Of a stretch of 64,000 nucleotides of DNA, positions 4,603-61,484 are shown piece after piece. A program made the translations under genes and the position numbers. The stretch lies in the NCBI GenBank assembly GCA_035531675.1, contig DATKSL010000033.1, forward strand, positions 160,260-224,259. Direction: 5' to 3'. Below the pieces are notes generated by a model. That model did no database searches and was not told the origin of the DNA. It saw only the letters and a program-made list of their open reading frames with translations. The DNA is from Candidatus Binataceae bacterium. Its GTDB lineage: Bacteria; Desulfobacterota; Binatia; Binatales; Binataceae. Every line of letters begins with the position of its first letter. The stretch's first letter is position 1.

Positions 4603-5847
4603 CTAGCTGGCCGGGGCGGCGCGCGAGGCGATTAACTTGTGTGCTTCGGCGAGCTCGCCAATCGCGGGCCAGAACTCCTGCGGCTCGTTGAAGTTGGCGA
4701 CGAACCATTCGGCGAGAGCGGGGTTTTGCGAGGCCGCGCCCAGGATTTCGCGCGCCGGCTCGGTAATCGGTTCCAGCAGCAGGTTGGAAAAATTCGTGAT
4801 GCCCTTCGATTCCTTCTCCCAGTACTCCTCGAACAGCGCTTCCATCCAATCCGCATCGAAAGGGCGTGAGCGACGCTCGACGATCCGCTCGATCGCCAGA
4901 TGGGTAGTCTTGGCGGCATGATTCGAGCCCTGCCCGGCGATCGGATCGTTGAGCACGACGGTGTCGCCCAACCCCATCACGACTCGCCCCGACTTGAGCC
5001 GCCCGACCGGCCGGCGGATGGTCGGCGTCAGCGCCCCCTTGGCCCACGCCATCGGATCGGTCAGGGCGACGTCGCGCACGGTCGCGGACTCCCACGGTGC
5101 GAACTCGGCGATTATCTCGCGCGCGATGCGGATCATCTCGTCGCCCGAAGCGGCCGCGCCGAAGCGATCCATCGGGCCGCCCCGATGCGCCTCGAATAGC
5201 AGGCTGTAGCAGTTGATCCCGCCGACGGCGTGAAACGGGATCCAGAAGATCTCGCCCGCGCCGGCGAAGAAGGTGAACTTGATTGGCACGTCGAGCGCGA
5301 TCTTCCACGGCTTTAGCCCGGCCAGCGTCAGCAGGCCGAGCTGGCGGCGCGGCGCGGTGTAGACGCTGCGCGTGTCGTCGCGCGGGAAGAGCCCGGCGAT
5401 TTCACCCTTGCCGGCGGCGACCACCACCAGGTCGTGGCTGGCGGCGAGCTGCTCCAAGTCGTCGAGGGTGGCGCCCTTGAAAATCAGCTGGCCGCCGCGC
5501 CGCTCGAACTCCTCCATCCAGCGCGCGAACTTGAGCCGTTGATCGATGGCCTGTCCGGGCCGCGGCAAAGCGGCCTCGACCTGGAGCGCGATCGCACCCG
5601 GCTGCAGGCAGAAATCGAGGTGGATGCCGGCGCCCCAATGAGTCTCGCGATCCCAGGCGTTGAGCCCCAGCTCGCGTTCGTAGCTGAGCGCGCGATCGAA
5701 CATGAAGGCGGTTGCGATCGCGCGCCCCTTGAGCAGCTCCTCGGGCCGCCGATCCGAAAACAGCGTGACCTGGTAGCCACGGCGCAACAGCCCGAAGCCG
5801 AGATGAAGTCCGGCCTGCCCGGCGCCGATTATCGCGATACGCCGCAT
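4603..5847 (-). CDS. StyA-like FAD-dependent monooxygenase (styrene monooxygenase large-component family)
   Basis: N-terminal MRRIAIIGAGQAGL dinucleotide-binding motif, internal GLGD motif and a C-terminal region resembling StyA-type epoxidases, 414 aa. The start lies 3 nt after the stop of the upstream cupin gene. Confidence 0.6.
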   Translation of the reverse strand: MRRIAIIGAGQAGLHLGFGLLRRGYQVTLFSDRRPEELLKGRAIATAFMFDRALSYERELGLNAWDRETHWGAGIHLDFCLQPGAIALQVEAALPRPGQAIDQRLKFARWMEEFERRGGQLIFKGATLDDLEQLAASHDLVVVAAGKGEIAGLFPRDDTRSVYTAPRRQLGLLTLAGLKPWKIALDVPIKFTFFAGAGEIFWIPFHAVGGINCYSLLFEAHRGGPMDRFGAAASGDEMIRIAREIIAEFAPWESATVRDVALTDPMAWAKGALTPTIRRPVGRLKSGRVVMGLGDTVVLNDPIAGQGSNHAAKTTHLAIERIVERRSRPFDADWMEALFEEYWEKESKGITNFSNLLLEPITEPAREILGAASQNPALAEWFVANFNEPQEFWPAIGELAEAHKLIASRAAPAS

Positions 5848-5850
5848 CGA

Positions 5851-6252
5851 TTACGGATGGCCCGCGGCGCCCTGCTTGACGTAGCCCTCCGGACCGTTGG
5901 TGGTGACCGCCAGGTACGACAGCCGCCCGCTGCCGGTGTTGCGGATACCATGGATCACGGTGCGCGGCACGATCACGCAATCACCCGCCTTGACCGGGAC
6001 CTCGGTGCCGTCGCCGTGCAGCAGTCGTCCCTGGCCTTCGAGGATCATGAAGGTATGCGCATTGGCGGGATGCATGTGAGGGGCGTTCTCCTGCCCGGCT
6101 TCGAGGTTCCACACCACCAGGGTCTGGTCGGCGTCCTCGTACATCACAACCACGTTGGCCTCTTCTTTGGAGAAGCGGCGAAATGGGGCGAGATCGTGTA
6201 CCCCGCTGCCAACCGTCTTCGGCTCCATCTTTTTGGTCAAATCCGCCGGCAT
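5851..6252 (-). CDS. cupin domain protein
   Basis: HMHPxxxHxFxILEG and VPxxxxHG cupin motifs. ATG at 6252 with a GGAGGAGA RBS; the longer 6519 ORF extension is rejected. Confidence 0.65.
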   Translation of the reverse strand: MPADLTKKMEPKTVGSGVHDLAPFRRFSKEEANVVVMYEDADQTLVVWNLEAGQENAPHMHPANAHTFMILEGQGRLLHGDGTEVPVKAGDCVIVPRTVIHGIRNTGSGRLSYLAVTTNGPEGYVKQGAAGHP

Positions 6253-6390
6253 CTTGGTCTCCTCCCGAGTCTTTCGATTATGGTTTGCGATCCGTCGCAG
6301 TTCGAGGTGATTGTCGCGCAGGTGCCTGCTAATGCATAGTGGAAAATCCGGCAAACGAGCAATGGCGCGCCGGCCGGTTACGGTAATCCG

Positions 6391-7236
6391 ATGAAATTCG
6401 GCATCCAGACCAAGGTGACCCTTTCCTCGATCGGCGTTGCCGAGCTGGCCCGGGCGATCGAGCAGCGCGGCCTCGAAGCGCTGTTCCTGGCCGAATATAC
6501 CCATATCCCCAAGCAGCATAAGTCGCCGTTCGGCGGACCGTTGCCAGAGCCGTTCTTCAACACCTTCGACCCGCTGATCGCGCTGGCGGCGGCGGCCCAG
6601 GCGACCGGGCGAATTACGCTGGGGACGTGTGTGATGGTGGTGGTGCAGCGCAATCCGATCGTGCTGGCGAAGGAAGTCGCGACGCTCGATCAGTTATCGG
6701 GCGGGCGCTTCGTGCTGGGGGTCGGCGCCGGCGGAATTCCCGAGGCCAACCTGAATCACGGCGTCACGAGTGGGCAACGATGGCAGGTGCTGCGCGAGAC
6801 GGTGCTGGCGCTCAAGCAGATCTGGAACTCCGCCGAGCCCGAATTTCACGGTGAAATCGTCAACTTCGATCCGATCATTTCCAATCCCAAGCCGAAGCGG
6901 CCCGGCGGCCCGCCAATCCTGCTCGGCGGCCACGCGCCGCGGACCATCGAGCGCGCCGCGCAGTACTGCGACGGATGGTTTCCCGGCTTCGGTTACGGGA
7001 GCTTCGATTTGGCGGCGGGAATCGAAGCGTTTCGGCGCGCGGCCGCGAGCGCCGGCCGCTCCGCCGATGCGCTGGCGGTGAACGTAGTCTCGGTGCCGAT
7101 CGACGAGGCGAAGTTGCGGCCGCTGCTGGCGCTGGGGATCGAGCGGATCGTCTTTCAGGTGCCGTCCGAGCCGCGCGACACGATGCTGCCGATACTCGAC
7201 CGCTGCGCCGAGGTCGCCGGTCGACTAAATGGCTGA
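6391..7236 (+). CDS. LLM class (luciferase-like) flavin/F420-dependent oxidoreductase
   Basis: TIM-barrel LLM signature regions (LGxGxG, FHGE...F) across a 281-aa ORF. Confidence 0.8.
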   Translation: MKFGIQTKVTLSSIGVAELARAIEQRGLEALFLAEYTHIPKQHKSPFGGPLPEPFFNTFDPLIALAAAAQATGRITLGTCVMVVVQRNPIVLAKEVATLDQLSGGRFVLGVGAGGIPEANLNHGVTSGQRWQVLRETVLALKQIWNSAEPEFHGEIVNFDPIISNPKPKRPGGPPILLGGHAPRTIERAAQYCDGWFPGFGYGSFDLAAGIEAFRRAAASAGRSADALAVNVVSVPIDEAKLRPLLALGIERIVFQVPSEPRDTMLPILDRCAEVAGRLNG

Positions 7237-7246
7237 GGGCTGAATC

Positions 7247-8224
7247 ATGATTCCACTTACTTTCGCCTGCGGGCTTTACGATCGGATGCTGCCGCTCTAC
7301 AGCGGCGAGGTGCGGCCGGAGGGGATCGATCTCAAGTTCCTCGCGATCGAGTCGCCGCGCGAAATTTTCGACCGCATGGCCGGCAAGATGGAATTCGACG
7401 CCTGCGAGATGTCGAGCTCCGAGCTGATCAGCCGGATGGGCGCCGGCCAATGTCCGTTCGTCGCTATCCCGGTCTTCCCGTCGCGCGTCTTCCGCCACGG
7501 TTTTATCTGCATCAACCGTAACAAGGGCATCAAAACCCCGAAGGACCTGGAGGGCAAACGGGTCGGCGTGCCGCTCTACACGATGTCCGCGGCGCTCTGG
7601 ATTCGCGGCCATCTCCAGCACGAATACGGCGTCGACCTGTCGACGATCCATTGGGTGCAGGGGGCGACCAATGCGCCCGGGGCGCACGGCAGTCCGACCG
7701 TGCTGCCGCTGCTGAAGCCGGTCTCGATCGAGAACAACCACAGCGACCGATCGCTGAGCCAGCTGCTCGAAGCGGGCGCGATCGACGCGATTGCGGGCGC
7801 CGAGATGCCGGCGGCGCTCGGCAAGAGCGCCAACGTCGAGCGGCTGTTTCCGAACTTTCGCGAGGTCGAAAAGGATTTTTACCGGCGCACGCGGATCTTC
7901 CCGATCATGCATCTGGTGGTAATCCGGCGCGAGCTTTACGAGCGTCATCCGTCGGTGGCGGCGAGCCTCTACGATGCGCTCTTGCGCTCGAAGAACATCG
8001 CGCTGGCCCGGATGCGTTACCTCGGGGCGCTGCGCTACATGCTGCCGTGGCTGCCCGCCGACCTCGACGAGCTTGATGAGACCTTCGGCGCCGATCCGTG
8101 GCCGTACGGTATCGAAGCCAACCGGCCGACGCTCGAGGCGCTGGTCAGCTACATGGTCGAGCAATCGTTCATCGCGCGGCCGATTCCAATCGAGGAGCTG
8201 TTCGTCCCGACTGCCGTCCAATGA
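7247..8224 (+). CDS. NMT1/THI5-like periplasmic-binding-fold protein, 4,5-dihydroxyphthalate decarboxylase (Pht5)-like family
   Basis: Motifs recalled for the Pht5 family (IPVFPSRVFRH, GVPxYTMSAAxWxRG, FYRRTRIFPIMH, WPYGIEANRxTLEA). The GAGGG RBS is followed by ATG, and the stop overlaps the next gene start (ATGA). Confidence 0.55.
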   Translation: MIPLTFACGLYDRMLPLYSGEVRPEGIDLKFLAIESPREIFDRMAGKMEFDACEMSSSELISRMGAGQCPFVAIPVFPSRVFRHGFICINRNKGIKTPKDLEGKRVGVPLYTMSAALWIRGHLQHEYGVDLSTIHWVQGATNAPGAHGSPTVLPLLKPVSIENNHSDRSLSQLLEAGAIDAIAGAEMPAALGKSANVERLFPNFREVEKDFYRRTRIFPIMHLVVIRRELYERHPSVAASLYDALLRSKNIALARMRYLGALRYMLPWLPADLDELDETFGADPWPYGIEANRPTLEALVSYMVEQSFIARPIPIEELFVPTAVQ

Positions 8225-9363
8225 GCCGACCACCGTTTCGTGCCGATATCGTCGGGAGCTTTCTGCGCCCGCAAGCGCTCAAGCAGGCGCGCGAAGCGCT
8301 GCTCGGGCCGCAAAGCGCGGATCAGAATCTCGGCCCGCACGACCACCACGAGTTGCGCGCGATCGAGGACGGTTGCATACGCGAGGTGATCGCGATGCAG
8401 CAGCGCGCGGGCCTCAAGTCGGCGACCGACGGCGAATTCCGCCGCCGTAGCTGGTGGCTCGAACTAATCCTCGGCTGGGAGGGGTTTGCCGCCAACCGCA
8501 CCGCGAACTCCGAAGTCACGTGGCGCAACCAGGCCGGTGCCCAGCAGGGATTCTCGCGCCTGTGGCTGACCGGGCGCATCGGATGGCGCCCGAGTGCCGT
8601 GGTGCGCGCCTTCGAATTCCTGAAGGCCAACACCCGGGCCACGCCGAAGGTCACGATGCCGAGTCCCAACCAGGTGCATTTCTTTTTGCGCGGCGACGAC
8701 GGTATCCGCAATTCTTCGGTCTATCGCGAGGTCGATGCGTTCTGGTCGGATCTGGTGGCCGTCTACCGGCGCGAGATTTCCGCGCTGGTGGCCGCCGGGG
8801 CGCGTTATATCCAGCTCGACGACACCAGCATCGTGTTCCTGTGCGATCCCGCGCAGCGCGACGTGATGGCCGGGTGGGGCAAGACGCCCGAAGCGCTGCT
8901 CAATGAGTACGCGGAGCGGATTAACCAGGTGATCGCGGGGTTTCCCGAGGACGTCACCTTCACGTTGCATCAGTGCCGCGGTAATCGCGAAGGTAACTGG
9001 GTCGCCGAAGGCGCCTACGATCCGGTGGCCGAGGTGTTGTTCAACAAGATCAACGTGCAGGGATTTTTTCTCGAGTATGATTCGCCGCGCGCCGGCTCGT
9101 TCGCGCCGTTGCGTTTCCTGCCCAAGGGCAAGACGGTGGTGCTGGGGCTGGTGTCGACCAAGGGTCCGGCCCTGGAAAGCAAGGACGATCTCAAGCGCCG
9201 TATCGACGAAGCGACTCGGGTGGCGCCGCTGGAGCAACTTGCGCTCAGCCCGCAGTGCGGATTCGCCAGCTCGATCAAGGGCAACCCGCTCACCGAGCAG
9301 GACCAACTGGCGAAGCTCACGCGCGTCGTCGAAGTCGCGCGCGAAGTCTGGGGCGACGCCTGA
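8221..9363 (+). CDS. MetE-like (cobalamin-independent methionine synthase II family) Zn-dependent methyltransferase-fold protein
   Basis: N-terminal PPFRADIVGSFLRP motif. Zn-ligand-like HxC (HQC) and a late conserved Cys (SPQCGF). Start coupled to the upstream gene (ATGA). About 380 aa. Confidence 0.7.
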   Translation: MSRPPFRADIVGSFLRPQALKQAREALLGPQSADQNLGPHDHHELRAIEDGCIREVIAMQQRAGLKSATDGEFRRRSWWLELILGWEGFAANRTANSEVTWRNQAGAQQGFSRLWLTGRIGWRPSAVVRAFEFLKANTRATPKVTMPSPNQVHFFLRGDDGIRNSSVYREVDAFWSDLVAVYRREISALVAAGARYIQLDDTSIVFLCDPAQRDVMAGWGKTPEALLNEYAERINQVIAGFPEDVTFTLHQCRGNREGNWVAEGAYDPVAEVLFNKINVQGFFLEYDSPRAGSFAPLRFLPKGKTVVLGLVSTKGPALESKDDLKRRIDEATRVAPLEQLALSPQCGFASSIKGNPLTEQDQLAKLTRVVEVAREVWGDA

Positions 9364-9389: not shown

Positions 9390-10787
9390 TCAGATTACCG
9401 GCCATTTCGATTTGTCGGGCAGGCCGGTGCGCCGGCAGATCGCTTCGGCGGCCTGCTGGACCTCACGATAGAGCCGATCTTCGTCGATCATCGTGAGCCG
9501 ATAGTTATCGACCACCTTGCGGCCATCGACGAATACCGTATGGACGCTGCGGCCGTCGGCCGAATAGACCAGCTGATTCGCCACGTTCAGCAGCGGCGTC
9601 CATTCCGGCCGTTGCCGATCGTGCAGCACCAGGTCGGCCCGCTTGCCGGCCTCGATCGAGCCGATCTGATCCTCGCATAGCAGCGCGCGCGCCCCGCCCA
9701 GCGTCGCCATCTCGTAGGCCTTCTCAGCCGGAAACATCGTCGGGTCGCGCCGCGCATCCTTGAACAGTCCGGCCACCAGGTAGGTCGCACGCATCAGGTC
9801 GGAATAGTTCGAGGCGTTGTTGCCGTCGGTGCCGATTACCAGGTTGACGCCGGCCGCGGCCATCTCGGGCATCTTGCCGATCTGGGTGACGCCGTAGGCG
9901 ACCTTCAGCGCGGTGGTCGGGCAATGCGCCACGCTGACGCCATGCTCGGCCAGCAACTGGACCTCATGGTCGTCGAGATGAACGCAGTGAACGATGACCA
10001 CGTTGCGATCCAGGACTCCTATCTTGGCGAGGAATTCGATCGGTCGCAGGCCGTACTCCTTGAGAAAGCCCGCCGGATCCATCGCCGCCGGCGACATGTG
10101 GAAGTTCAGCCCCACCCGATGCTCATCCGCGATTCGCTTGGCGGCCTTCCAGAGCTCGGGCGTGCAGGTGGTATGGCCGACGATCATCGGCCACGCCATC
10201 AGCCGGCCATCGGCGTCCTCCCGATGAGTCGCCATCAGCCGCTCGAGGCTCGCGATCGCCTCGGCCGTCGTACGCCGATAGACCGCGGGCTCCGCCGGCC
10301 GGTCCCAGGTCCACTCGCCGATGCGACCCCTGATCCCGGTCGCCGCCAGCCCTTCGACCACCGCGTCGACGAAGCGGACCGTGCCGGCCTCGAGAAAGGT
10401 GGTGGTGCCCGATTTCAGCAGCTCCGCCGCCGCCAGTTGCGCCGAAAGCTGCTCCTCGCGCTCGTTGGCCGCGGAATACAGCGGGCACAGCCAATCGAAG
10501 ACATTGGCTTCGAAGTTGATGTCATCGGGTACGAAGCCGCGCGTGATGGGCTCGCCGGTGATGTGGATGTGGCAGTTGACCATGCCCGGGCAGGTGACGA
10601 ATCGCGAGCCATCCAGCTCTTCGCGGCTGGCGAAGCGCGCCTGGAGGTCCGCGGTCTTGCCGACCGCCACGATCTCCCGGCCGTGGATTGCGACCGCGCC
10701 GTCGGCGATAACCTCGCGGCGCGGGTTCATGGTCACCACCAGCGTGTGGGTGATCAACGTATCAAGGGACTGCTTCGGGCTCGTCAT
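9390..10787 (-). CDS. amidohydrolase family protein (TRZ/ATZ chlorohydrolase / nucleobase or MTA deaminase type)
   Basis: NCHIH metal-binding HxH motif, HxxH and a C-terminal Asp region, 465 aa. AGGTG-type RBS before the ATG at 10787. Confidence 0.75.
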   Translation of the reverse strand: MTSPKQSLDTLITHTLVVTMNPRREVIADGAVAIHGREIVAVGKTADLQARFASREELDGSRFVTCPGMVNCHIHITGEPITRGFVPDDINFEANVFDWLCPLYSAANEREEQLSAQLAAAELLKSGTTTFLEAGTVRFVDAVVEGLAATGIRGRIGEWTWDRPAEPAVYRRTTAEAIASLERLMATHREDADGRLMAWPMIVGHTTCTPELWKAAKRIADEHRVGLNFHMSPAAMDPAGFLKEYGLRPIEFLAKIGVLDRNVVIVHCVHLDDHEVQLLAEHGVSVAHCPTTALKVAYGVTQIGKMPEMAAAGVNLVIGTDGNNASNYSDLMRATYLVAGLFKDARRDPTMFPAEKAYEMATLGGARALLCEDQIGSIEAGKRADLVLHDRQRPEWTPLLNVANQLVYSADGRSVHTVFVDGRKVVDNYRLTMIDEDRLYREVQQAAEAICRRTGLPDKSKWPVI

Positions 10788-11095: not shown

Positions 11096-12397
11096 ATGCG
11101 AAACGCGCTGGTAAGGGCGCTAAGCGTCCTGTTAGGAGCAGTGCTGTTGATGGCGCTGGCTCTGGGCGGAGATGCGCGCGCCGCTGGCGAGGAGGGCCTA
11201 GCGCCTCCTGGCACCGTCATCACGACGAAGAACTGGAAGCAGTACAAGGGCGTGATGGAGCAGGGTCTGCAGGGGCTGTTCTCGGGCGACTATTTCTGGA
11301 AGTTCCCGGCCGACTTTCGCATCGAGATCGGACCGACCCACAATTATCCGCTGCCCAAGCTCTACCAAGAATACACCGAGAAATACAGCAAAGATGTGAA
11401 GATCGTCGACCTTCCTGACGGCGGCCACAGCATCAAGGGATACGTCGGCGGGTTGGCGTTCGCTCATCCGTCGGGGCCGCTCAAGGGTTGGGAGATACTG
11501 GTCAATACCTGGTTCGAGTATGTCCCGCACATCACCTGCGCGCCCAACAACCACGTCTTCCTGCGCGATCGGTATGGGAACCTGACGACCGAAGTTACCA
11601 CCACCGTTTACCGGCAATTCAACTTCGTCAGCGATCCCGGCGTGCCCAATTCCGATCCCGACGGCAAGGGCCTTTACTACTCGGAGTACACCCGGGTTCT
11701 CGCGCCCGAGCAGTCGCGCTACACCACGCAACTTACGCTCTATTACACCGATCCCACCAAGAGCGAGGACCTGTTCCTCTTCATCCCGGCGCTCAGGCGT
11801 ACGCTGCGCCTGTCGGCGGCCTCGCGATGCTCGCCGTTCGTGGGTACCGACTGGACCCAGGACGACGTCAAGCAGTTGTTCAATGGCGGGATCGTGCGTT
11901 TCGACGCCACCCTGGTCGGCGAACCCAAGATTCTCGCCCTGACGGTCGCCAACGAGTCGGCGGTCAGCAACATGAACAATTACTCGATCTTTTTCCCCGG
12001 TCCGAACATCGGCAAATGGGAAGTGCGCGATTCATACCTGCTTGACGTGCGGCGCATCCCCTCGCAGCGCTCCGGCTATTGTTTCGGTAAGCGGATGCTG
12101 TACGTCGACCAGCAGCAGTGGACCCAGTTCTGGGCCGACCTCTACGACGGGAACATGAAATACTGGAAGTCGACCTCTTTCCAGCAGATCGCCCACCAGG
12201 TTCCTGGCGTGGGCCCGGTGATGTATACCGGCGAGTACCTGGTTTCGCTCTGGGATCAGCAGAACAGCCATGCCAGCGCATGGATCGCGAATCCGCCCTA
12301 TGGCACCAACCAGCAGTGCGCGAACCTGGGCGGCATCAACTACACCGACGCCAAGCTCTACTCGAGTGTCGGTGGCTTGAGTTCGATCATGCAGTAA
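11096..12397 (+). CDS. DUF1329 family secreted protein (paralog 1)
   Basis: Signal peptide, about 430 aa, composition and motif pattern of DUF1329. About 45 % identical to a second copy at 54114-55433 (for example LRRTLRLSxAxRCSP, IGKWEVR, GYCxGKRxxY). Confidence 0.55.
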   Translation: MRNALVRALSVLLGAVLLMALALGGDARAAGEEGLAPPGTVITTKNWKQYKGVMEQGLQGLFSGDYFWKFPADFRIEIGPTHNYPLPKLYQEYTEKYSKDVKIVDLPDGGHSIKGYVGGLAFAHPSGPLKGWEILVNTWFEYVPHITCAPNNHVFLRDRYGNLTTEVTTTVYRQFNFVSDPGVPNSDPDGKGLYYSEYTRVLAPEQSRYTTQLTLYYTDPTKSEDLFLFIPALRRTLRLSAASRCSPFVGTDWTQDDVKQLFNGGIVRFDATLVGEPKILALTVANESAVSNMNNYSIFFPGPNIGKWEVRDSYLLDVRRIPSQRSGYCFGKRMLYVDQQQWTQFWADLYDGNMKYWKSTSFQQIAHQVPGVGPVMYTGEYLVSLWDQQNSHASAWIANPPYGTNQQCANLGGINYTDAKLYSSVGGLSSIMQ

Positions 12398-12421
12398 TCG
12401 TTACGGATTGCTGGTTTTCGG

Positions 12422-12461
12422 CGAAGGCTCGGTCGCGGACAGCGGTCGAGCCTTCGCGCTT
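12422..12461 (+). terminator. putative intrinsic terminator after DUF1329 gene
   Basis: Perfect 10-bp stem (CGAAGGCTCG / CGAGCCTTCG) with a 14-nt loop at 12422-12455, followed by CGCTTTC. Only a weak U-tract. Confidence 0.35.
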
Positions 12462-12565
12462 TCAGGGCCGGGATCCGCCGCGGGAGCCGGCGCCCGCCGA
12501 TCGCGATACGGCTCGACCGCCTCCGCCAGGTTGCTCAGGTTGCTAAAACCGGCTGCCCGACTATT

Positions 12566-13876
12566 GTGCAGCAGTTGGACCAGCAGATGGCGATTTCGTC
12601 GATCAACATCGAAGCGCCGCACGACCAGGGATGGCCGCGCCGCTATACCGTCATCGTGCTGTTCGCGCTCGGCACCGCGCTCTGCTACATCGACCGCGTC
12701 AATATCTCGATCGCGATCATTCCGCTGGCCGCGGACAAGGGCTACGACGCGGCCGCCCAGGGACTGGTCCTGTCGTCGTTCTTCTGGGGCTATATATGGC
12801 TGCAGATGCTCGGCGGATGGCTGGCCGATCGTTTCGGCGGCAAGCGCGTGCTGATGGCGGGTGTGGCGATTTGGTCGCTGGCGACCGCGCTCACGCCGCC
12901 GGCCGCCTCGATTTCGTTCGGCGCCCTGCTCGTGACCCGCGCCCTGCTGGGCGCCGGCGAGGGGCTCAACTTTCCGGCCGTGCACAGCGTTGCGGCGCGC
13001 TGGACGCTGGTGACCGAGCGGGCGCGCGCCATCGCGTTTCACTTCAGCGGCCTGACCTTCGGCACTATCGTCGCGCTGCTGGTGAGTCCGGCGATCGTGA
13101 TCGACTTGGGATGGCCGTCGGTGTTCTACATTTCCGGCGCGCTGGGCCTGGTATGGCTTGCCGCCTGGTATATAAAGGCCGCCGACGCGCCCGAGGATTG
13201 TCCCGGCGTCAGCGCGCACGAGCTGGCCACCATCGCGGCCGGGCGGCCCGAGATGCCGCTGGCGGGGTCCATTCCGTGGGCTGCGATCCTGCACGAGCCG
13301 GCGGTGTGGGCTATCGTCATCGCCCATCTGTGCAACAATTTCGGCTTCTATATCATCCTGCTATGGCTGCCGAGCTATCTCTCGCACACCTTCCAGGTGC
13401 CGATGGCGCGGCTGGGCGAGCTTTCGGTCATCCCGTACGCGGTCGCCTTCGTGATGCAGAACGCCAGCGGATGGTTCGCCGACACGTTGCAGAAACGCGG
13501 CATGAGTCTGACCGCGGTGCGCAAATCGATGCAGACGGCGGCCTTCGCGGCGGGCGCGATACCGCTTATCGCACTGCCGGCGGCGACCTCGGCGGGCGTC
13601 GCGGTCACCCTGGTGACACTGTCGATCGGCGGTTCGTCGCTGGGCGTTGCCGCCTTCGCCGTCAATCACCTTGACGTCGCGCCGCGCTACGCGGGCATCC
13701 TGATGGGGCTGTCGAACACCTTCGCCACCATCCCCGGCATCGTCGGCGTCGCCGCCACCGGCTTCATCCTCCAAAAGACCAATTCGTTCGCCGCGGCCTT
13801 CTACCTGACCGCCGTCGTCTACGCGATCGGGATGGTCTGCTACCTCGCCATCGGCAGCGGCGACCGCAAGATCTGA
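12566..13876 (+). CDS. MFS transporter (anion:cation symporter-like)
   Basis: 12 predicted hydrophobic segments. MFS motifs DRxGxKR (DRFGGKRVL) and a PESP-like loop. Confidence 0.8.
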   Translation: MQQLDQQMAISSINIEAPHDQGWPRRYTVIVLFALGTALCYIDRVNISIAIIPLAADKGYDAAAQGLVLSSFFWGYIWLQMLGGWLADRFGGKRVLMAGVAIWSLATALTPPAASISFGALLVTRALLGAGEGLNFPAVHSVAARWTLVTERARAIAFHFSGLTFGTIVALLVSPAIVIDLGWPSVFYISGALGLVWLAAWYIKAADAPEDCPGVSAHELATIAAGRPEMPLAGSIPWAAILHEPAVWAIVIAHLCNNFGFYIILLWLPSYLSHTFQVPMARLGELSVIPYAVAFVMQNASGWFADTLQKRGMSLTAVRKSMQTAAFAAGAIPLIALPAATSAGVAVTLVTLSIGGSSLGVAAFAVNHLDVAPRYAGILMGLSNTFATIPGIVGVAATGFILQKTNSFAAAFYLTAVVYAIGMVCYLAIGSGDRKI

Positions 13877-21412: not shown

Positions 21413-22594
21413 ATGACGACCGAGATCACCAACCAGCGCTGGACGCGGAAGTTCCCCGAGCTGGGAACGGCGCCGGTGGCGGCCGAGTCGTGCGTTTCGC
21501 CGGAGTTCTTCGAGCGTGAACGCGAGCGCATCTTCAGGCATTCGTGGCTGTGCGTCGGCAACGTTTGCGAGTTGCCCGAGCGCGGCGACTACATCGTCAG
21601 GGAGGTCGCGATCTGCGACGCCCAGCTGCTGCTGATTCGCGGGCAGGACGGCGTGGTGCGCGGCTTTCACAACGTCTGCTCGCATCGCGGCAACACCCTG
21701 GCCTGGGACCGAGCGGGAAAATGCCGCGGCTATCTGACCTGCAATTTCCACTCCTGGGGCTATGATTCGAGCGGCCAGCTCAAGTGGATTCCTGACGCCG
21801 AAAACTTCTTCGATCTCGACCGCAGCAAGCTCGGCCTGACTCCGGTCGCCACCGAGATTTTCAACGGCTTCATCTTCATCAATCTCGATCCGCAACAGAC
21901 CCTGACCGAGTACCTCGAGGGCGTGACCGAGCGGCTGACGCCGGTGGGCTTCGATCAGCTGCGATTGCAACGCATGTATCGGGTCAACGAGCGGGCCAAC
22001 TGGAAGGTCGCGATGGACGCCCAGAACGAGGGCTACCACGTCTTTTCGCAACATCGTTACCTGATGCCGAACCTGTTCATCACGACCAAGGAAGGCTGCA
22101 TGCGCTCAGCGGAGATGGCGTTCTTCGGCCGTCACAGTGTTTCCGGCAGCAATCTCAACCCCGCCTACCAGCCGTTCCCGCTGGAGGGGTTGATGTTCCA
22201 GATCGACAAGGGGCCTTCGCGATGTCGGCTGCCGATGCGCAACCAGTTCGAGTTCCACATGATTTTTCCGAACTTCGCGATGCTGTTCTTTCGGTTTCCG
22301 GCCAATGACTATTGCATCACGCACAATTTCTGGCCGATCGCGGTCGATCGCACGCTGTGGGAGATAAGATTTTACGCGCCCGCGCCGCTCAACGCCGCCG
22401 AGCGCCTCAGCCAGGACTTCATGCAGGTCTTCAACCGCGTGGTGTTCGACGAGGATGCGACCGCGCACGAGACTGTCCATGCGGGCCTCGCCTCGCGCGC
22501 GAAAAAGTATCTGCTATTGCAGGACGAGGAGATCGCGATTCGGCATTTCCACAAGGTCCTCGACGATCAGCTCGCGATCCGCAACGGAGCCTGA
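21413..22594 (+). CDS. Rieske non-heme iron aromatic-ring-hydroxylating oxygenase, alpha subunit
   Basis: Rieske CxH...CxxH (CSHRG...CNFHSWG) and a catalytic domain with a His/Asp mononuclear iron region. 393 aa. Confidence 0.8.
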   Translation: MTTEITNQRWTRKFPELGTAPVAAESCVSPEFFERERERIFRHSWLCVGNVCELPERGDYIVREVAICDAQLLLIRGQDGVVRGFHNVCSHRGNTLAWDRAGKCRGYLTCNFHSWGYDSSGQLKWIPDAENFFDLDRSKLGLTPVATEIFNGFIFINLDPQQTLTEYLEGVTERLTPVGFDQLRLQRMYRVNERANWKVAMDAQNEGYHVFSQHRYLMPNLFITTKEGCMRSAEMAFFGRHSVSGSNLNPAYQPFPLEGLMFQIDKGPSRCRLPMRNQFEFHMIFPNFAMLFFRFPANDYCITHNFWPIAVDRTLWEIRFYAPAPLNAAERLSQDFMQVFNRVVFDEDATAHETVHAGLASRAKKYLLLQDEEIAIRHFHKVLDDQLAIRNGA

Positions 22595-26232: not shown

Positions 26233-27561
26233 TCATACACCCGGCAGCGGAAAGAACCGCACCCCGTTGTGATTATCGCAACCCATGGTGGTGGTGGTAC
26301 CCGCGCAGTTGCCGGCGGGGAGCGCCGTATTGATAGCGCCCGGATCTTTCCGCAACTTTTCAAGATCGACCTCGGCCACAAAGGTTTCGTCGCTATTCAC
26401 GATGTAGGCGCGGTTGTGGCAGGTGTCGATCGTATCGCTATACGGAAGTATGGCAGCCTCGAACTGTGCGCCATCCGGCTGAAGCGGCAGGGCTGCGCTC
26501 ACAGCGTCCAAATCGTATGGGCTGATGTACTTCATGGGAGCTTTTGGCAGGCTCAGAAGCACGACTTCATTGTCGAGCAGTCCGGTCAGGAACGCCTCAT
26601 GAGTCATCGGATTGATCGTCACGCCGGGCAGAAGGTCGTTGGCGCCGGTGTCGAAGTTGAGCGAATTGGGCGGCGGTGTTTCGGCCTCATCCAGCGTGCA
26701 CGACGGGGGCATCCCGTTAAAGGTTGCGCCCGAAAGATTAAGCACCGAGGTAAGAACGTCACCGAAGTTGCCAATTACCCAGATGCCCGTAGTCGGGTCC
26801 GCCGCCGCGCCTTCCGCGTCGCCGTTGAGGTCGACCACGTTGCCATCGGTAAGCGTGCAGGCTGCGTTGGCCGCAACGTTAGTTGCGTACATGGTAGGGT
26901 CGATAAAATCCGAAGGACCCAGTGCGGTCCGTGCCCGCGGGTCGAGGCCGAAATTGTTGACCGGGCTGTCGAACTGCATCAGCGGGCCAAAGGTATTCGA
27001 AGCCAGGTCGAAGGTTGCCATCCCGGTGCAGTCGGTGAAGCTTCCGCCCGGGCAGGTAATCGGCGTCGAGGTCATCGAAACCAGCGCGCTGTTGTGAATC
27101 GAATCGAACACGATCCCGTCCGTGAAGCCCGGTCGGCTGCCGACTGGAAACGAGAACGGTGAGCCGGCTACGAGCGTATTGTCGCTTTCGTTGATTTCGT
27201 CGAGATAGCCCGTGGTCAGGATCGATCCGCTGACCACCAGCACCAGCCCCTGCTTCGCCGCGATCGCAGTCCCAATGGCGATGCCGCCGTGACCCAGATC
27301 GACGGTGGTCACGGTCGGGTCGGTGGTGTCGGGGTCGACGCTCAGATCGAGCACCGCGACTTTGGCGTCAGTTCCGCTGGTGGTTGGGAGCGGGACATAG
27401 GCGCGCTGGTGCTTGCAGTCGACCGCCTCCAGGCTGGCGTTGGTCGCATTTCTAATGGCCGCCGAAGGCGTCGGCGGCAGTGGTGAGCTGCCGTTGCTGC
27501 CGCCGCATCCGGCCCACAGCAGCGCCATCGACACGATCCCCACTAGCCAGGCCCGCTTCAT
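26233..27561 (-). CDS. secreted lipoprotein-like protein (443 aa), possible beta-propeller
   Basis: MKRAWLVGIVSMALLWAGCGG signal with a lipobox-like LWAG|C. Gly/Thr/Asp-rich repeats. Its ATG overlaps the stop of the upstream giant gene (ATGA at 27558-27561). Confidence 0.55.
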   Translation of the reverse strand: MKRAWLVGIVSMALLWAGCGGSNGSSPLPPTPSAAIRNATNASLEAVDCKHQRAYVPLPTTSGTDAKVAVLDLSVDPDTTDPTVTTVDLGHGGIAIGTAIAAKQGLVLVVSGSILTTGYLDEINESDNTLVAGSPFSFPVGSRPGFTDGIVFDSIHNSALVSMTSTPITCPGGSFTDCTGMATFDLASNTFGPLMQFDSPVNNFGLDPRARTALGPSDFIDPTMYATNVAANAACTLTDGNVVDLNGDAEGAAADPTTGIWVIGNFGDVLTSVLNLSGATFNGMPPSCTLDEAETPPPNSLNFDTGANDLLPGVTINPMTHEAFLTGLLDNEVVLLSLPKAPMKYISPYDLDAVSAALPLQPDGAQFEAAILPYSDTIDTCHNRAYIVNSDETFVAEVDLEKLRKDPGAINTALPAGNCAGTTTTMGCDNHNGVRFFPLPGV

Positions 27562-30500
27562 TTTCGCACCCCCATTCCCTGCGTATCGCTGCACACCGGT
27601 GCGGTCGCCGTGGTGGCGGCGTAATGCGGAAAGTCCCCCGGGACTGGAGTCGGCATCACCGTGGTGGGCGGCATCGTTCCCACCAGTGCCAGATGATAGG
27701 CCGGGGTCGGCTCGGGAGCCAACATCGCGGTCGGAAGGGTGCAGGTCGACGGGCCGGGCACATAGTTGGGGTCGGTAACCGTGATTACGTAATCCTTGCA
27801 ACCCTCTGCCGGACAGACGTAATAGGTCTCGCCATTCGCGTTTTTGGGACATGAGGGATCCGCCGGCGACTTATCCTTGCAATTGGCCAGCGGTGACGGA
27901 CCATCGGGATTGTGATCCTCCTGGGCCACGTAGAGGAACAGCCAGCCGGTTGAGGAATCGTAATAGTATTTGTCGAGACCGTTATGACCACTCATGTCCA
28001 TGGTACTAACGTAGGTCCCGTCCGAGTTGGTGATGTCACTCAGATTTGCAGCCGGGCTCAGGGTGTCCGTCGGCCATAGGCAAGCCGGTTGGCCGCGGTT
28101 GTCTGTAACCTTGGTGGTACCGTCGGGGCATCCCGCCGAGGCCAGCGTGATCCCGTCGGCCGGGCATCCGATGTAAGGATCTTGCGGCCCGGAGGTGGGA
28201 GTATAAGGACACCCGGCGAGGAGGGGATTCGACGGGCATTGCAGGTTGATTGGCACGGGCTTGTTGGGCAACCCCGGCAACAGGGTATTGCCGACCAGAT
28301 TGTCGCAAATCTCGTGATTACCGTTCTTGTCGACGTACAGATTATTCAGCTTGTTATAGTAGGCGCGTAATTCGAGGTCGTCGGGGCCAGCGCCGATCGT
28401 GCCGCCGCCGTAGGAGTGGTAGCCGCGTGCGATCGTGAACGACGACGCATCCGCGGGCTTGCCGTTCTTGTTCTGGTAGCAGATACCGATTCGCACGTAG
28501 AACGGGTTGGTGGCGCTGATACTGGGCTTGTAAGCATCCACAATGCCCAGCTCAAGGATCTTGGCGATCCCCGCGTCCGTGCCCTTGTCCTGCGCATCAA
28601 CCGCGGCTGTTACCGTGTAGCTCAGCCCGCTGGTTACCTTGGGCTCCCAAACTCCCAGCGCATTGCGGCTGGTGAGGGTCATCGCGCCATGCCCCCCGAA
28701 ATCGACCGCGTCCTTGGTGAAGGTGATCGCCTGCTTCTGCAGAAACGGCGGCTTCGTGCTGTCGGCATCGGGCGGATAGAGCATCTGGAGTTCCAGCGTC
28801 GCCATGCTCGACGGCGACATCAGCGCGGTCGGCCGGTTCTCGAGCACCGCATCCTGTGCACCCTCCGCCAGGCACTCGTCCACCGAGTTGCTCGAGGCGT
28901 TGATCACCAGGCCGTTGAGCGAGATCGGATGGGGTCCGTCGAAGCGCGTGCTGACCGTGTTTTTAGAGTCAGCGGCCACGAACCCGGACAGCGTGCCGTC
29001 GAGATCGACTACCGCGGTGTTCTGATCTCCGTCGCCGAAGCCCGAGCTCGGATTTAAGGGATCTTTGCCGAGGTTGACGTATTGCGTGTAGATCTGATGG
29101 CGCAGATCGGTATTGACGAAGCTCAACTCCGAGGTGTTCGCCAGCGTCGGATAGCTGCTCTGGTTTGACTGGAACCAGCCAAAAGCGGCATCACCCTCGT
29201 AGACCCAGTTCTTCTCTACGCCGTCCTTACCAGTCAGTTTACGAGCGTCGCCCCAGGCTTTGAGCGCCGCGGCGTCGTCACCCGTGAGCGCCGGACTCTG
29301 TTTGAAATCTACAAAACGATCGTGGATCAGACGGGCCGGGCCGTCGTAGATCATGTAGCCGAACATGTTCCAGTTGGGGTCGGGATAGCCTTTGCCGATC
29401 TCATCCGCGCTGTGCGGCTGGTCGCCCGTCTGGACCGGCGTCTGATCGATACAACCCGCCAGCGGCGCCTGACCGGCGAAAGAGGTGTCCGGCCGGGGGC
29501 ACGGACCGAAGCGATCGACATTGTTCTGACTGATTCCCTCGAACACCGAGTTCTCGGTCAGCATCCAGTCGCCCGGGGTGGCGCCGTCGACCCCGCCGGC
29601 GGTCAGCAGCGAGGCGCTGTCGCGGCTGGTCGCGAAGCGGCCGTGGTCGAGCACGAACCACTGATCTCTCAGCCAGACCCCGCGATCGCGGATGCGGAGC
29701 GCGGTCAGGCCGTCGAATTCGGCCAGCAGGTTGCGACTGTTAGGCGTGCCATCGACCGTCGGATGGAGCAGTGAGGCGTTGGATACGCTGTAAGCTCCCT
29801 CGCCGAAGAGGCCGTCGAAGCAGGCGCTGACGCGGTTGTCGCGGAAGGTTCCTACCGGCAGGTATTGGTTAAAATGGACCGCCGTGGGCGCGTTGATCGG
29901 GGGCGGAACGTACCAGTAGCCGACCCCTACGCCCTGGCATCCGTCGATTATATTGCCGGTCAACTGCGTGCCCGGATTGGTGATCCAGAAACCGCTGGCC
30001 GGTTCGATGTAAACCGGATTGTTAGCCGGACATCCTCCGCCCGCCAGCGGCGGGACATAGCCGCCGAGTTGGCCGTTGTATCCGAAGGTCGTACACGAGC
30101 CGTGGGTCGGGTTGGCGGTGTTGTCCATGTCGGGGATGTTGAAGCCGTTGTAGCCGATATTGTCGCCACCCGGCTTTCCATTGGTCAGGTAATCCCCTTT
30201 CCACCAATACTTGTCGATCAGCTCGTCCCGGGAGAATTTGTTGGTCTTGTAGATATCGAACGAGTTGCTCATCGCGCCGATGCCGAGATTGTCCCGGAAG
30301 GTGATGTTCTTCTCGTCGCCGATCTCTTCGTAAAAGAGATGGCCGACAGCACGGACGCATACCGTGTTCGAAATGGTCAGATTGTCGGTCGAGTGCACCG
30401 TTACGCACTTGTTGTAGCTGTGGTCGATGCTGTTGGAATCAACCAGCGCCGTCCCGCCGGCAAGTGGGCCGTCCATGTGAAAATGGATCGGATAGCTGCC

Positions 30501-31718
30501 GAGCTGATCCTTGCCGAACTTCTGCATCTCCACGCCCTGGATCGAGACCTCCTTGAAACCCATCAGGTACCTGGTCTCGCCGCCCCAATGGATATCGGCC
30601 TTATCCTTGCCATCGATGCTCGCGGTCAGCTTGATATTGCGGCTTAGCAATGCGACCGGGGCGCGCTCGTCAACGCCGTAGTTCTGCGCCGCCGGGTCAC
30701 TGTAGTTGAGCGGACTCGGCTGCGAGGTGCAGGCGCTGGTGCATCCCATGGGCGCCATGCCGCAGGCGAAGTAGGTCGGCACGTTGTTGACCATGCAGAA
30801 CTGGCTTGGCGTCGGCGCCGCGCTGCCGAAGTGGTAGTGAACCAGCGGTGTCGAAAGGAAAACGTCGCTGCCGGTCGGATTGTCAGCCGGCTTGCTCTTG
30901 ATGCTCGCAATCTTCACGATCTCGGTGTCGAACGGGCTGAAGCTGGTGCCGCCCACCGCAATCCAGTCATCGTCCTGCCAGCGACCGGTACCCTGGGTTA
31001 CGTCGTCGGCCAGCCGCAGCGCATCCGCGCCGTCGGTCCCAACCGGCACCGTGACTCCGCTGCCCTTGCCATAATGCTTGGGCGGCCCGGCGGGCTGCGA
31101 AAGGTAGCTCCAGTTAAGGCCGTTGGGCGGGACTCCCTTCTGCCCATACATCTCCAACGAGCCGCCGCTTTGAACCTGGATCCCCTTGCTGAAGTCCGGG
31201 CAGTTGGTCCCCGCCGCGCACGGACGTTTGCCGTTGAAGTCGAGTGTGACCAGCGTCATCGGATCCGTCATCCCGATCGGATGGGCCTTCTGGCCGATCT
31301 GGAGCAGGCCGTTGACCAGGATGGTGCCGACCTCCATCTTCACGGTCTTGTCTGGAAAGCAGAGCGTGGCGCCGGAATCGATGGTGATGGTGTTGAAGCG
31401 CTCCTCGCCCATGTAGCTCTTATCGACGTATACGCTCGGGCCGCATCCGTTGGCGCCGATCTCAAGGTCTTTGTTGGCGCCTTTTTTACAGCTCGAATTC
31501 GACAGCGGGATCGCCGATGCGCCGCAGATACCCGGATCCGCTTGGACCATGTTCCTGAAGTTTCCCGGGAGCGTCCTGGCGCCGCTGCCGCCGCTATACG
31601 CACTGACTATCAGCATCGTGGCTGCCGCGAATGCCCAACGGACGACCGTGAAGCTGCGCCGCCTGGGTCCGGAAGTCTGCGAACTGCCAGTGATTTCCGA
31701 AAAGATTTTCCTAAACAT
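27558..31718 (-). CDS. giant secreted G8-domain / right-handed parallel beta-helix protein (CEMIP/TMEM2-like), 1386 aa, Cys-rich C-terminal region
   Basis: N-terminal region with Tat-like RRRSF plus a hydrophobic signal. A G8-like Gly-spaced domain (res ~90-210). A central YPIHFHM...CVTVH...GHLFYEE block reminiscent of the CEMIP/TMEM2 beta-helix. Multiple CPxxGC-type Cys pairs near the C-terminus. Uninterrupted 4.16-kb frame. Confidence 0.6.
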   Translation of the reverse strand: MFRKIFSEITGSSQTSGPRRRSFTVVRWAFAAATMLIVSAYSGGSGARTLPGNFRNMVQADPGICGASAIPLSNSSCKKGANKDLEIGANGCGPSVYVDKSYMGEERFNTITIDSGATLCFPDKTVKMEVGTILVNGLLQIGQKAHPIGMTDPMTLVTLDFNGKRPCAAGTNCPDFSKGIQVQSGGSLEMYGQKGVPPNGLNWSYLSQPAGPPKHYGKGSGVTVPVGTDGADALRLADDVTQGTGRWQDDDWIAVGGTSFSPFDTEIVKIASIKSKPADNPTGSDVFLSTPLVHYHFGSAAPTPSQFCMVNNVPTYFACGMAPMGCTSACTSQPSPLNYSDPAAQNYGVDERAPVALLSRNIKLTASIDGKDKADIHWGGETRYLMGFKEVSIQGVEMQKFGKDQLGSYPIHFHMDGPLAGGTALVDSNSIDHSYNKCVTVHSTDNLTISNTVCVRAVGHLFYEEIGDEKNITFRDNLGIGAMSNSFDIYKTNKFSRDELIDKYWWKGDYLTNGKPGGDNIGYNGFNIPDMDNTANPTHGSCTTFGYNGQLGGYVPPLAGGGCPANNPVYIEPASGFWITNPGTQLTGNIIDGCQGVGVGYWYVPPPINAPTAVHFNQYLPVGTFRDNRVSACFDGLFGEGAYSVSNASLLHPTVDGTPNSRNLLAEFDGLTALRIRDRGVWLRDQWFVLDHGRFATSRDSASLLTAGGVDGATPGDWMLTENSVFEGISQNNVDRFGPCPRPDTSFAGQAPLAGCIDQTPVQTGDQPHSADEIGKGYPDPNWNMFGYMIYDGPARLIHDRFVDFKQSPALTGDDAAALKAWGDARKLTGKDGVEKNWVYEGDAAFGWFQSNQSSYPTLANTSELSFVNTDLRHQIYTQYVNLGKDPLNPSSGFGDGDQNTAVVDLDGTLSGFVAADSKNTVSTRFDGPHPISLNGLVINASSNSVDECLAEGAQDAVLENRPTALMSPSSMATLELQMLYPPDADSTKPPFLQKQAITFTKDAVDFGGHGAMTLTSRNALGVWEPKVTSGLSYTVTAAVDAQDKGTDAGIAKILELGIVDAYKPSISATNPFYVRIGICYQNKNGKPADASSFTIARGYHSYGGGTIGAGPDDLELRAYYNKLNNLYVDKNGNHEICDNLVGNTLLPGLPNKPVPINLQCPSNPLLAGCPYTPTSGPQDPYIGCPADGITLASAGCPDGTTKVTDNRGQPACLWPTDTLSPAANLSDITNSDGTYVSTMDMSGHNGLDKYYYDSSTGWLFLYVAQEDHNPDGPSPLANCKDKSPADPSCPKNANGETYYVCPAEGCKDYVITVTDPNYVPGPSTCTLPTAMLAPEPTPAYHLALVGTMPPTTVMPTPVPGDFPHYAATTATAPVCSDTQGMGVRK

Positions 31719-53965: not shown

Positions 53966-53994
53966 TTGACAAACAAATAAGCCATTGTTATGGA
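53966..53994 (+). promoter_or_regulatory. candidate sigma70-like promoter (TTGACA-17 nt-TATGGA) upstream of DUF1329 paralog 2
   Basis: Hexamers and 17-nt spacing were read from the sequence. It is located in a 300-bp AT-rich leader. The -10 element is weak. Confidence 0.3.
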
Positions 53995-54113
53995 GCGGAC
54001 TGCGCGTACCGCTGTTTCGGGACTTTGAGCGTCGCTTGGGACCGACGCTGTTACAACGTGCTCGCGCGTCAATCTTGGACAAGGTTGCCGCGGCGGCCGA
54101 AAGGAAGGGGCAG

Positions 54114-55433: not shown

Positions 55434-55546
55434 CGTCTTGCCGAATCAACGGCGCATCGTGCCCTGACGCGAATTGGGGTGCGATGCGCCGTTTTCCGAT
55501 CCACATACAGCGTGACAAATCGATCCCGCGGCTTGCGGTTGATGAA

Positions 55547-60094: not shown

Positions 60095-60199
60095 GTCAAT
60101 GCACTCCGTGGTTTGGCTCTGCGAGCCGACAACCTGGCCGCCAGGCGGGAGACTCTCACGGCGGCGAAATTCCGCAGCGGGCGGTAAGGACTATACTCG

Positions 60200-61306: not shown

Positions 61307-61484
61307 AGACTTATTCCCAATCCTTTGTGCGGGAAACATAAGATCATCAGCGCTCCGAACGCAATCTGCGCGCCTCACAAGTGTCTGAAGTCCACCGAAC
61401 TTGACAGCGGTTAGCAGGATCGACGAGATATGGCGCAGCGCAAGCCGCAGTCTCGATGATGAATACTCAACTCAGGAGCGAGCC

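Follow-up and report, generated by a model that had tools for sequence, protein, structure and literature searches.

A three-gene array encoding an LLM-class oxidoreductase, a protein resembling 4,5-dihydroxyphthalate decarboxylase (Pht5-like) and a protein resembling the catalytic barrel of methionine synthase (MetE-like) was analyzed in a contig from an uncultured Candidatus Binataceae bacterium of soil (DATKSL010000033.1, assembly GCA_035531675.1). The window, that is, the whole stretch of DNA that was analyzed, covers 64 kb (64,000 nucleotides, positions 160,260 to 224,259 of the contig) and has a G+C content of ∼65%; close homologs of the operon proteins are labelled Candidatus Binataceae, phylum Binatota. 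The array consists of three open reading frames (ORFs) on the same strand, as follows.

6391–7236, + strand: LLM-class oxidoreductase of 281 amino acids (aa), operon gene 1 (PF00296, TIGR03619)
7247–8224, + strand: Pht5-like protein of 325 aa, operon gene 2 (homology to 9jp7; GAGGG before the start)
8221–9363, + strand: MetE-like single-domain zinc enzyme (predicted) of 380 aa, operon gene 3, accessory (PF01717, PRK06520, 1ypx)
8221–8224, + strand: ATGA stop/start overlap of the Pht5-like and MetE-like genes (direct reading of the sequence)

The LLM and Pht5-like genes are separated by 10 nt, with a GAGGG preceding the Pht5-like ATG, and the ATGA overlap consists of the Pht5-like TGA stop (8222–8224) and the MetE-like ATG (8221–8223). 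With the MetE-like start placed at the ATG at 8221, the protein comprises 380 aa and its stop lies at 9363. An earlier note on this DNA had described a three-gene array led by the LLM gene and containing the ATGA at 8221–8224, and both the ORFs and the overlap were recovered here. The same three genes had been called independently on identical metagenome contigs, one of which is a 178-kb ENA contig. The G+C content at third codon positions (GC3) is 0.83–0.85 for the frames of the LLM and Pht5-like genes, and the MetE-like ORF, counted from an upstream GTG, has a value of 0.78; the neighbouring genes are comparable. Judged by gene arrangement, the LLM, Pht5-like and MetE-like genes form a genuine three-gene operon that is lineage-specific.

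Family, fold and active-site residues of the MetE-like protein

PF01717 is the sole Pfam match of the MetE-like protein, which scores 356 bits against PRK06520 (cutoff 313). In phmmer searches, 1ypx (Listeria, YxjH type) alone was found (E 4e-80, residues 4–379). The models of two-domain MetE, TIGR01371 and PRK05222, gave 18.3 and 17.7 bits against cutoffs of 541 and 930, respectively, and a family profile reached MesD (3rpd) at E 4.6e-10 and two-domain MetE at E ∼1e-3. The AlphaFold2 (AF2) model (pLDDT 77.5, pTM 0.84) was closest to 1ypx in Foldseek, with a template-modelling score (TM) of 0.87 normalized to the target, followed by the MetE C-terminal barrels (0.70) and MesD (0.68/0.74), whereas MtaA (4ay7) and UroD were far lower (TM ∼0.5). 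The protein is a single (β/α)8 barrel of the 1ypx/YxjH/PRK06520 family, which comprises 899 clusters at 50% identity (E up to 1e-30) and more than 8000 clusters at 90%.

Identity as a two-domain MetE was rejected on length, on the single PF01717 domain and on the ∼18 bits obtained with the MetE models. Identity as MesD/MesX was also rejected, since 3rpd was missed by phmmer, the profile E value was only 4.6e-10 and there is no neighbouring DUF1852 gene, and identity as MtaA or UroD was rejected on a TM of ∼0.5 compared with 0.70–0.87 for MetE and 1ypx. The view in the earlier note that the protein is not an authentic MetE is borne out by these scores, and the comparison which that note had proposed, with MetE C-terminal domains and with MtaA/UroD, shows it to be neither an authentic MetE nor of the MtaA/UroD type, its fold being closer to the MetE C-terminal barrel and MesD than to MtaA or UroD.

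In MetE, zinc is bound by His641, Cys643, Glu665 and Cys726, and homocysteine is bound by Ser433, Glu484 and Asp599 (PMC7857596). In a profile alignment with Candida MetE the motifs GS(F/L), (D/H)GE, IQxD(D/E), HxC and PxCG coincide, and the equivalents in the MetE-like protein are H250, C252, E285 and C346 for zinc and S13, E72 and D200 for homocysteine, the equivalence of Glu285 being taken from the multiple alignment and not from superposition. All seven residues are invariant in 15 close relatives and across 11 divergent sequences, which include the two other paralogs of the window and four tandem copies of one Rhizobium metagenome-assembled genome (MAG), and they are at least 98% conserved among 189 family members. 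With these residues kept and the folate-binding N-terminal barrel missing, the protein is most likely a zinc-dependent homocysteine alkyl- or methyltransferase using a non-folate donor. Homocysteine as a substrate also fits Firmicute yxjH, which is under Met-specific T-box control and is co-transcribed with luxS (PMC6004538).

An alkyl- or methyl-transfer or decarboxylation role, distinct from methionine synthesis, had been suggested previously. The transfer part of this suggestion agrees with the retained residues for homocysteine alkylation, whereas decarboxylation by the MetE-like protein is unlikely because all of the zinc and homocysteine residues are invariant. As for the distinction from methionine synthesis, the chemistry is probably still homocysteine alkylation, and it is the donor and the physiological setting that differ. 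A related explanation, that the protein is a metal-independent decarboxylase like UroD or a corrinoid methyltransferase like MtaA acting on an aromatic acid, could appeal to the superfold that UroD and MtaA have in common and to the adjoining decarboxylase homolog; it is extremely unlikely given the complete MetE constellation of zinc and homocysteine residues, the TM of ∼0.5 against 0.70 for the MetE C-terminal barrel and 0.87 for 1ypx, and the absence of a corrinoid protein gene nearby.

Within its family, the operon protein belongs to a divergent subclade ('HQCRGNREG'), as judged from its PRK06520 score of 356 bits, which is far under the 592 bits of another paralog in the window. This subclade is metagenome-rich and is set apart by an 8-residue insertion and by seven clade-specific substitutions near the conserved motifs.

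The Pht5-like and LLM proteins and conservation of the array

The Pht5-like protein is homologous to the solved 4,5-dihydroxyphthalate decarboxylase of Comamonas testosteroni KF-1 (9jp7; phmmer E 1.6e-65, residues 3–323), and Foldseek matched its AF2 model to 9jp7 with a TM of 0.82 and 38% identity, followed by ThiY, TauA, Thi5 and SsuA, which are of periplasmic-binding-protein type II. Pfam and NCBIfam gave weak NMT1/SsuA matches and nothing else, as the family is covered by no model in either library; the Pht5-like assignment in the earlier note is supported by the end-to-end homology to 9jp7 and not by these profiles. The N-terminus opens directly with the first β-strand and no signal peptide is present. 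The protein is a cytoplasmic decarboxylase homolog with a periplasmic-binding-protein type II fold, and the former label 'periplasmic-binding-fold decarboxylase-like' was right. Homologs of the protein (P0121–P0240) carry conflicting annotations, namely 'ABC transporter substrate-binding protein' at NCBI and '4,5-dihydroxyphthalate decarboxylase' at IMG.

The neighbours of the Pht5-like gene are the cupin, LLM, MetE-like and amidohydrolase genes, and the nearest phthalate-type Rieske oxygenase gene (PF11723) is located 38 kb away at 46170–47378. Homologs of the subfamily (61–96% identity) usually adjoin genes for class II aldolases, proteins of the PEP-mutase/ICL family, bicupins, FAA hydrolases and TctC: Aldolase_II was a neighbour at 22 of 77 loci, TctC at 12, the PEP-mutase/ICL family at 11, each of two bicupin families at nine, ABC permeases at eight and FAA hydrolases at seven. 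Neither a Rieske oxygenase nor a phthalate dioxygenase was among the commonest neighbour families of these related loci. Since the neighbours differ from phthalate genes, the substrate is probably not 4,5-dihydroxyphthalate, and another hydroxylated aromatic carboxylate is the probable candidate.

The LLM protein matched both PF00296 (E 8e-51) and TIGR03619 (217.1 bits, cutoff 166.9, model positions 2–247 of 247), in agreement with its previous assignment as an LLM flavoenzyme. No F420 biosynthesis genes were found among the genes of the 64 kb and its flanks, which are the only visible part of the MAG.

Conservation of the array was surveyed by an alignment scan of species-representative genomes for the MetE-like protein (80 loci, 45–66% identity) and by an alignment scan of metagenomes for the Pht5-like protein (80 loci, 61–84% identity). 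At none of the 80 MetE-like loci does a Pht5-like or LLM gene adjoin the MetE-like gene, and at two of them a distant Pht5-like gene (27% identity) lies 1.4–3.5 kb away. A MetE-like gene was present within the flank of two of the 80 Pht5-like loci, directly downstream in neither, and no LLM gene was found at any Pht5-like locus of the metagenome scan. A conserved Pht5-like/MetE-like pairing was rejected on these counts. The surroundings of the operon were also compared among four syntenic Binataceae loci, with protein identities of 80–92%.

4603–5847, − strand: StyA-like flavin monooxygenase of 414 aa, downstream of the cupin gene (Smoa_sbd E 8e-24; in two of the four syntenic loci)
5851–6252, − strand: small cupin of 133 aa, divergent from the operon (Cupin_2 E 6e-17; in all four syntenic loci)
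6253–6390, no strand: divergent intergenic region of 138 nt, presumed promoter region of the cupin gene and the operon (sequence)
9390–10787, − strand: TRZ/ATZ-type amidohydrolase of 465 aa, convergent with the operon (Amidohydro_1 E 8.5e-51; in three of the four syntenic loci)

The StyA-like protein scores 225 bits against the StyA model (cutoff 550), and every NCBIfam match of the amidohydrolase is below its cutoff. A promoter and terminator scan gave nothing above background, and no sigma-70 consensus was found in 6253–6390, a result that is uninformative for the host phylum. The cupin gene is divergent from the LLM–Pht5-like pair at each of the four loci, which also share the left-hand FAA hydrolase, Amidohydro_2, SDR and DLH genes. 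The MetE-like gene is present in three of the four, with the overlap with the Pht5-like gene kept at 4 nt in L165 and 14 nt in L166. In L181/L182 (GCA_021324855.1, 7975–8003) the MetE-like gene is precisely missing, with 27 nt left between the stops of the Pht5-like and convergent amidohydrolase genes; compared with the 26 nt between the MetE-like and amidohydrolase stops in the window, this spacing indicates that a single cistron was cleanly gained or lost. The operon therefore has a stable core, made up of the LLM and Pht5-like genes, and the MetE-like gene is an optional, accessory third cistron that is translationally coupled where present and that the decarboxylase homolog does not require as a partner. 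The idea of the earlier note that the decarboxylase and the MetE-like protein are paired as a functional unit is supported neither by the survey counts nor by this syntenic relative.

The same evidence bears on the explanation that the Pht5-like protein is a cytoplasmic ligand-binding partner presenting an alkyl donor to the MetE-like barrel, in place of the MetE N-domain or MesX. Translational coupling of the two genes, the periplasmic-binding-protein fold with the NCBI naming of homologs, and the frequent position of MetE-like genes elsewhere beside binding proteins (NMT1, TctC, LIV/Urt), twice with an overlapping stop and start, are all consistent with such a role. However, those neighbouring binding proteins have signal peptides and are unrelated in sequence, the Pht5-like protein is 38% identical to a solved enzyme, and its gene occurs without a MetE-like gene in L181 and at 78 of the 80 related loci; the rarity of even a distant Pht5-like gene near MetE-like genes points the same way. 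This explanation is very unlikely.

The syntenic loci also weigh on a further alternative, in which the MetE-like protein would be an epoxide:thiol alkyltransferase resembling epoxyalkane:coenzyme M (CoM) transferase (EaCoMT) and would open an epoxide supplied by the StyA-like monooxygenase. EaCoMT is a single-domain zinc enzyme of the MetE family and of similar size, and the gene of the StyA-like epoxidase lies 2.4 kb upstream on the other strand. However, the StyA-like gene is absent in L166, in which the MetE-like gene is retained, as well as in L181; CoM would not call for the invariant residues that bind the amino-acid moiety of homocysteine; and no genes for CoM or alkene monooxygenase were seen among the genes of the window. 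EaCoMT was not seen among the plasmid matches listed. The probability of epoxide opening is very small, and is ranked just below that of a donor-presenting partner.

Paralogs, genomic contexts and the proposed function

Two further MetE-like genes and an O-methyltransferase gene are encoded in the window.

39528–40574: O-methyltransferase
58940–60094, − strand: third MetE-like paralog of 384 aa, in tandem with the second (PF01717 E 5e-15)
60200–61306, − strand: second MetE-like paralog of 368 aa, a core PRK06520 member with the motif 'HVCRGNFRSS' (PRK06520 592 bits)

The second paralog has 44% identity to the operon protein by tblastn and 45% over the alignment columns; the third has ∼22% identity and is below all NCBIfam cutoffs, with the zinc and homocysteine residues kept. 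The tandem pair (58940–61306) is flanked by a divergent gene for a 425-aa protein without a Pfam match (within ORF 61401–62762) and by genes for a flavin reductase, a SnoaL_4 protein, an HbpS-like protein and an MFP/MFS efflux pair. The window is a dense island of aromatic and organic-acid catabolism, with Rieske oxygenases at 21413–22594, 42760–44061 and 46170–47378 (the last being of the PF11723 homotrimeric type), at least four LLM genes, three Amidohydro_2 genes, two FAA hydrolase genes and DLH, SDR and GST genes. It holds no rRNA or tRNA gene. Two DUF1329/LolA-like proteins with 45% mutual identity are each encoded beside an MFS transporter (11096–13876 and 53985–57172), and the two pairs may represent copies of one uptake module. 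Amid the catabolic genes, at 27558–31718 (− strand), a 1386-aa G8 and CEMIP β-helix protein is followed by a 442-aa protein without a Pfam match.

Contexts of the 'HQCRGNREG' subclade include GntR/FCD regulators (three of seven contexts), NMT1- or LIV-type ABC systems, TctC (once with an overlapping stop and start), FAD_binding_3 hydroxylases, VOC dioxygenase-like proteins together with a Zn-dependent alcohol dehydrogenase (with an overlapping stop and start) and Amidohydro_2 (L005). The gene of one member with 71% identity, P0006 (L169, 1–15182), lies between a GntR regulator gene and that of a secreted NMT1-type binding protein, with genes for sulfite reductase, cysG, an Xsc-like thiamine pyrophosphate enzyme and a TauBC-like ABC system nearby; this organosulfur flavour is unlike the aromatic contexts. 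The NMT1-type neighbours were considered as relatives of Pht5 and were rejected, as they are secreted binding proteins without sequence similarity.

The 'HxCRGNFRS' clade, which includes 1ypx and the second paralog of the window, has 45–50% identity to the operon protein, and its members are co-directional with, and at the end of or inside, operons of the β-ketoadipate pathway. In the complete genome of Salinisphaera sp. SPP-AMP-43 (L022, NZ_CP145335.1, 4237–9104) the gene order is pcaQ-pcaH-pcaG-pobA followed by the MetE-like gene; the pcaH, pcaG and pobA products are above the equivalog cutoffs and the pcaQ-like regulator is just under (287 versus 304 bits). By tblastn, PobA, PcaH or PcaG was encoded at 13 of the 80 MetE-like loci (1.14 Mb; L022, L015, L017, L021, L030, L037, L052, L060, L061, L064, L084, L025 and L074) compared with none of the 80 Pht5-like control loci (0.48 Mb). 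These 13 loci come from Actinomycetota, Acidobacteriota, Gammaproteobacteria and Alphaproteobacteria, and the operon genes around the MetE-like gene are pcaHG, pobA and pcaB/D/IJ/F; no LigM/GcvT-type gene was seen in these operons, and neither pcaHG nor pobA is present in the window. Their position among pca and pob genes points to a funnelling function, for example O-demethylation.

In MAGs of Rhizobium, Xanthobacteraceae, Pseudolabrys and other Alphaproteobacteria, two to four MetE-like copies (42–50% identity to the operon protein) are arranged in tandem (L025, 5433–10338; L074, 4069–10344; L055, 5195–8759; L082, 6777–10350; L068, 280–2477). The arrays in L025, L055, L074 and L082 have three or four copies, and those in L025 and L074 stand directly after pcaHG and before acyl-CoA dehydrogenase and CoA-transferase genes. 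On a Klebsiella pneumoniae plasmid (L183, NZ_CP084844.1, 7983–14742) a MetE-like gene (43% identity), named 'cobalamin-independent methionine synthase II family protein', is directly upstream of a urtABCDE-type ABC transporter in a module that lies between IS5 and IS110 elements and recurs on many Klebsiella plasmids. The fusion proteins P0242, P0275 and P0316 were discarded as clues because they appear to be gene-call fusions with LysR or AMP-binding fragments. Overall, the contexts point to a diversified family acting on imported small molecules.

The foremost rival explanation takes the MetE-like protein, as PGAP and IMG name it, to be an alternative cobalamin-independent methionine synthase for biosynthesis that is parked behind a catabolic pair. 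Its PRK06520 score is above the cutoff, all of the catalytic and homocysteine residues are kept, Firmicute YxjH belongs to the methionine regulon, and neither metE nor metH was seen among the genes of the 64-kb window; the neutral context of P0060 and the position of P0006 near sulfite reductase and cysG would also suit a synthase. However, a folate-binding domain is missing, there is no MesX/DUF1852 or corrinoid-protein partner nearby, three paralogs occur within 64 kb and tandem arrays in other genomes, the gene is precisely absent in a syntenic relative, and the neighbouring genes of the family serve regulation, transport and catabolism and are not met genes. Furthermore, neither the window nor any of 19 homolog loci had a match to an Rfam family at its gathering score, SAM and B12 riboswitches included, and nothing ties the protein to a methionine regulon. 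A biosynthetic synthase is unlikely, and is ranked ahead of the donor-presenting partner, the EaCoMT-like enzyme and the UroD-like enzyme, in that order.

The reading that is put forward here, tentatively and with somewhat less than even confidence, is a lineage-specific catabolic operon in which a Pht5-like decarboxylase and an LLM enzyme are joined by a MetE-like homocysteine alkyltransferase with a non-folate donor. The Pht5-like protein would carry out the cytoplasmic non-oxidative decarboxylation of a hydroxy-aromatic carboxylate, and the LLM enzyme would oxidize or reduce compounds of the same series with F420 or a flavin. In the MetE-like protein, zinc would activate the homocysteine thiol, and the resulting thiolate would accept a methyl or other small alkyl group from a donor other than folate, for which a methylated small molecule, imported or made by the pathway, is the most plausible candidate. 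The MetE-like protein would then be a demethylase or methyl scavenger yielding methionine and not a housekeeping methionine synthase.

Several points weigh against this catabolic reading. No published biochemical data were found for any 1ypx/PRK06520 member, and stoichiometric use of homocysteine is costly for a high-flux catabolic step. The contexts of the 'HQCRGNREG' subclade are mixed, that of P0060 being housekeeping-neutral and that of P0006 being near sulfur-assimilation genes, and the pca/pob link belongs not to this clade but to the 'HxCRGNFRS' sister clade. In addition, the AF2 model of the Pht5-like protein is of medium confidence (pLDDT 67), and synteny among the Binataceae loci may come from common descent instead of selection.

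A broader proposal is that the one-domain PRK06520/1ypx proteins are unrecognized aerobic demethylases, free of folate and corrinoid, in which the homocysteine thiolate demethylates catabolic substrates to give methionine. The candidate substrates would be aryl methyl ethers such as vanillate, 4-methoxybenzoate and methoxylated phthalate-type acids, and the family would consist of many substrate-specific paralogs, one of which would have been recruited behind the LLM/Pht5-like pair in Binataceae. O-demethylation of methoxy-aromatics by the pca/pob-linked members is an attractive possibility. The broader proposal is unlikely. Neither a characterized MetE-like O-demethylase nor a characterized decarboxylase partner of a MetE-like protein was found in the literature, and a Phaeobacter 'Mes-like' mutant had no clear phenotype. 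DmtS of Novosphingobium was rejected as a MetE-like demethylase, as it had been picked for its homology to VanAB, a vanillate O-demethylase.

Taken by itself, the locus looks like an ordinary catabolic operon, restricted to one lineage and drawn from large and poorly characterized families. Annotation pipelines name thousands of the single-domain MetE-like proteins '5-methyltetrahydropteroyltriglutamate–homocysteine S-methyltransferase', although these proteins are without the folate-binding half, occur in several copies per genome and are encoded in catabolic or transport operons, among them operons for protocatechuate and 4-hydroxybenzoate. The implied function of a folate-dependent methionine synthase is very probably wrong for them, and their role may be that of homocysteine methyltransferases in catabolism or scavenging. 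Should they act as homocysteine-dependent demethylases, lignin-derived aromatics would have a new O-demethylation route in abundant and mostly uncultured soil lineages, and methionine supply would be tied to aromatic catabolism; should they not, the annotation of the family remains systematically wrong. The Pht5-like family calls for similar caution, its members being named as transporter-binding proteins at NCBI and as phthalate-pathway enzymes at IMG.

Comparison with known systems

The Pht5-like protein resembles 4,5-dihydroxyphthalate decarboxylase (Pht5/PhtD, 9jp7, EC 4.1.1.55) in full-length homology, fold and cytoplasmic location; however, its gene has no phthalate 4,5-dioxygenase or cis-dihydrodiol dehydrogenase gene beside it. 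The LLM protein is similar to the Rv2161c-type LLMs of TIGR03619, being above the curated cutoff with the whole model covered; NCBIfam names this family as F420-dependent, and it has no member with a defined substrate.

For the MetE-like protein, the 1ypx/YxjH-YxjG type (PRK06520, PRK06233) is alike in full-length homology, in its single barrel of ∼370–380 aa and in the same zinc and homocysteine residues, whereas the operon protein belongs to the separate 'HQCRGNREG' subclade. In Firmicutes, yxjH and yxjG are under S-box or T-box control, and the operon gene has neither. With MetE (TIGR01371/PRK05222) the protein shares the catalytic barrel (TM ∼0.70), the H/C/E/C zinc ligands and the homocysteine-binding Ser, Glu and Asp, but not the N-terminal Meth_synt_1 barrel, and it therefore has no half that binds folate polyglutamate. 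The folate-independent methionine synthase MesD/MesX (PMC7857596) differs in that similarity to 3rpd is remote and no gene for DUF1852 (MesX) is nearby; nevertheless, MesD is likewise a one-domain 'core' MetE homolog of aerobic bacteria, and a lone core MetE domain of this kind would need a non-folate methyl source.

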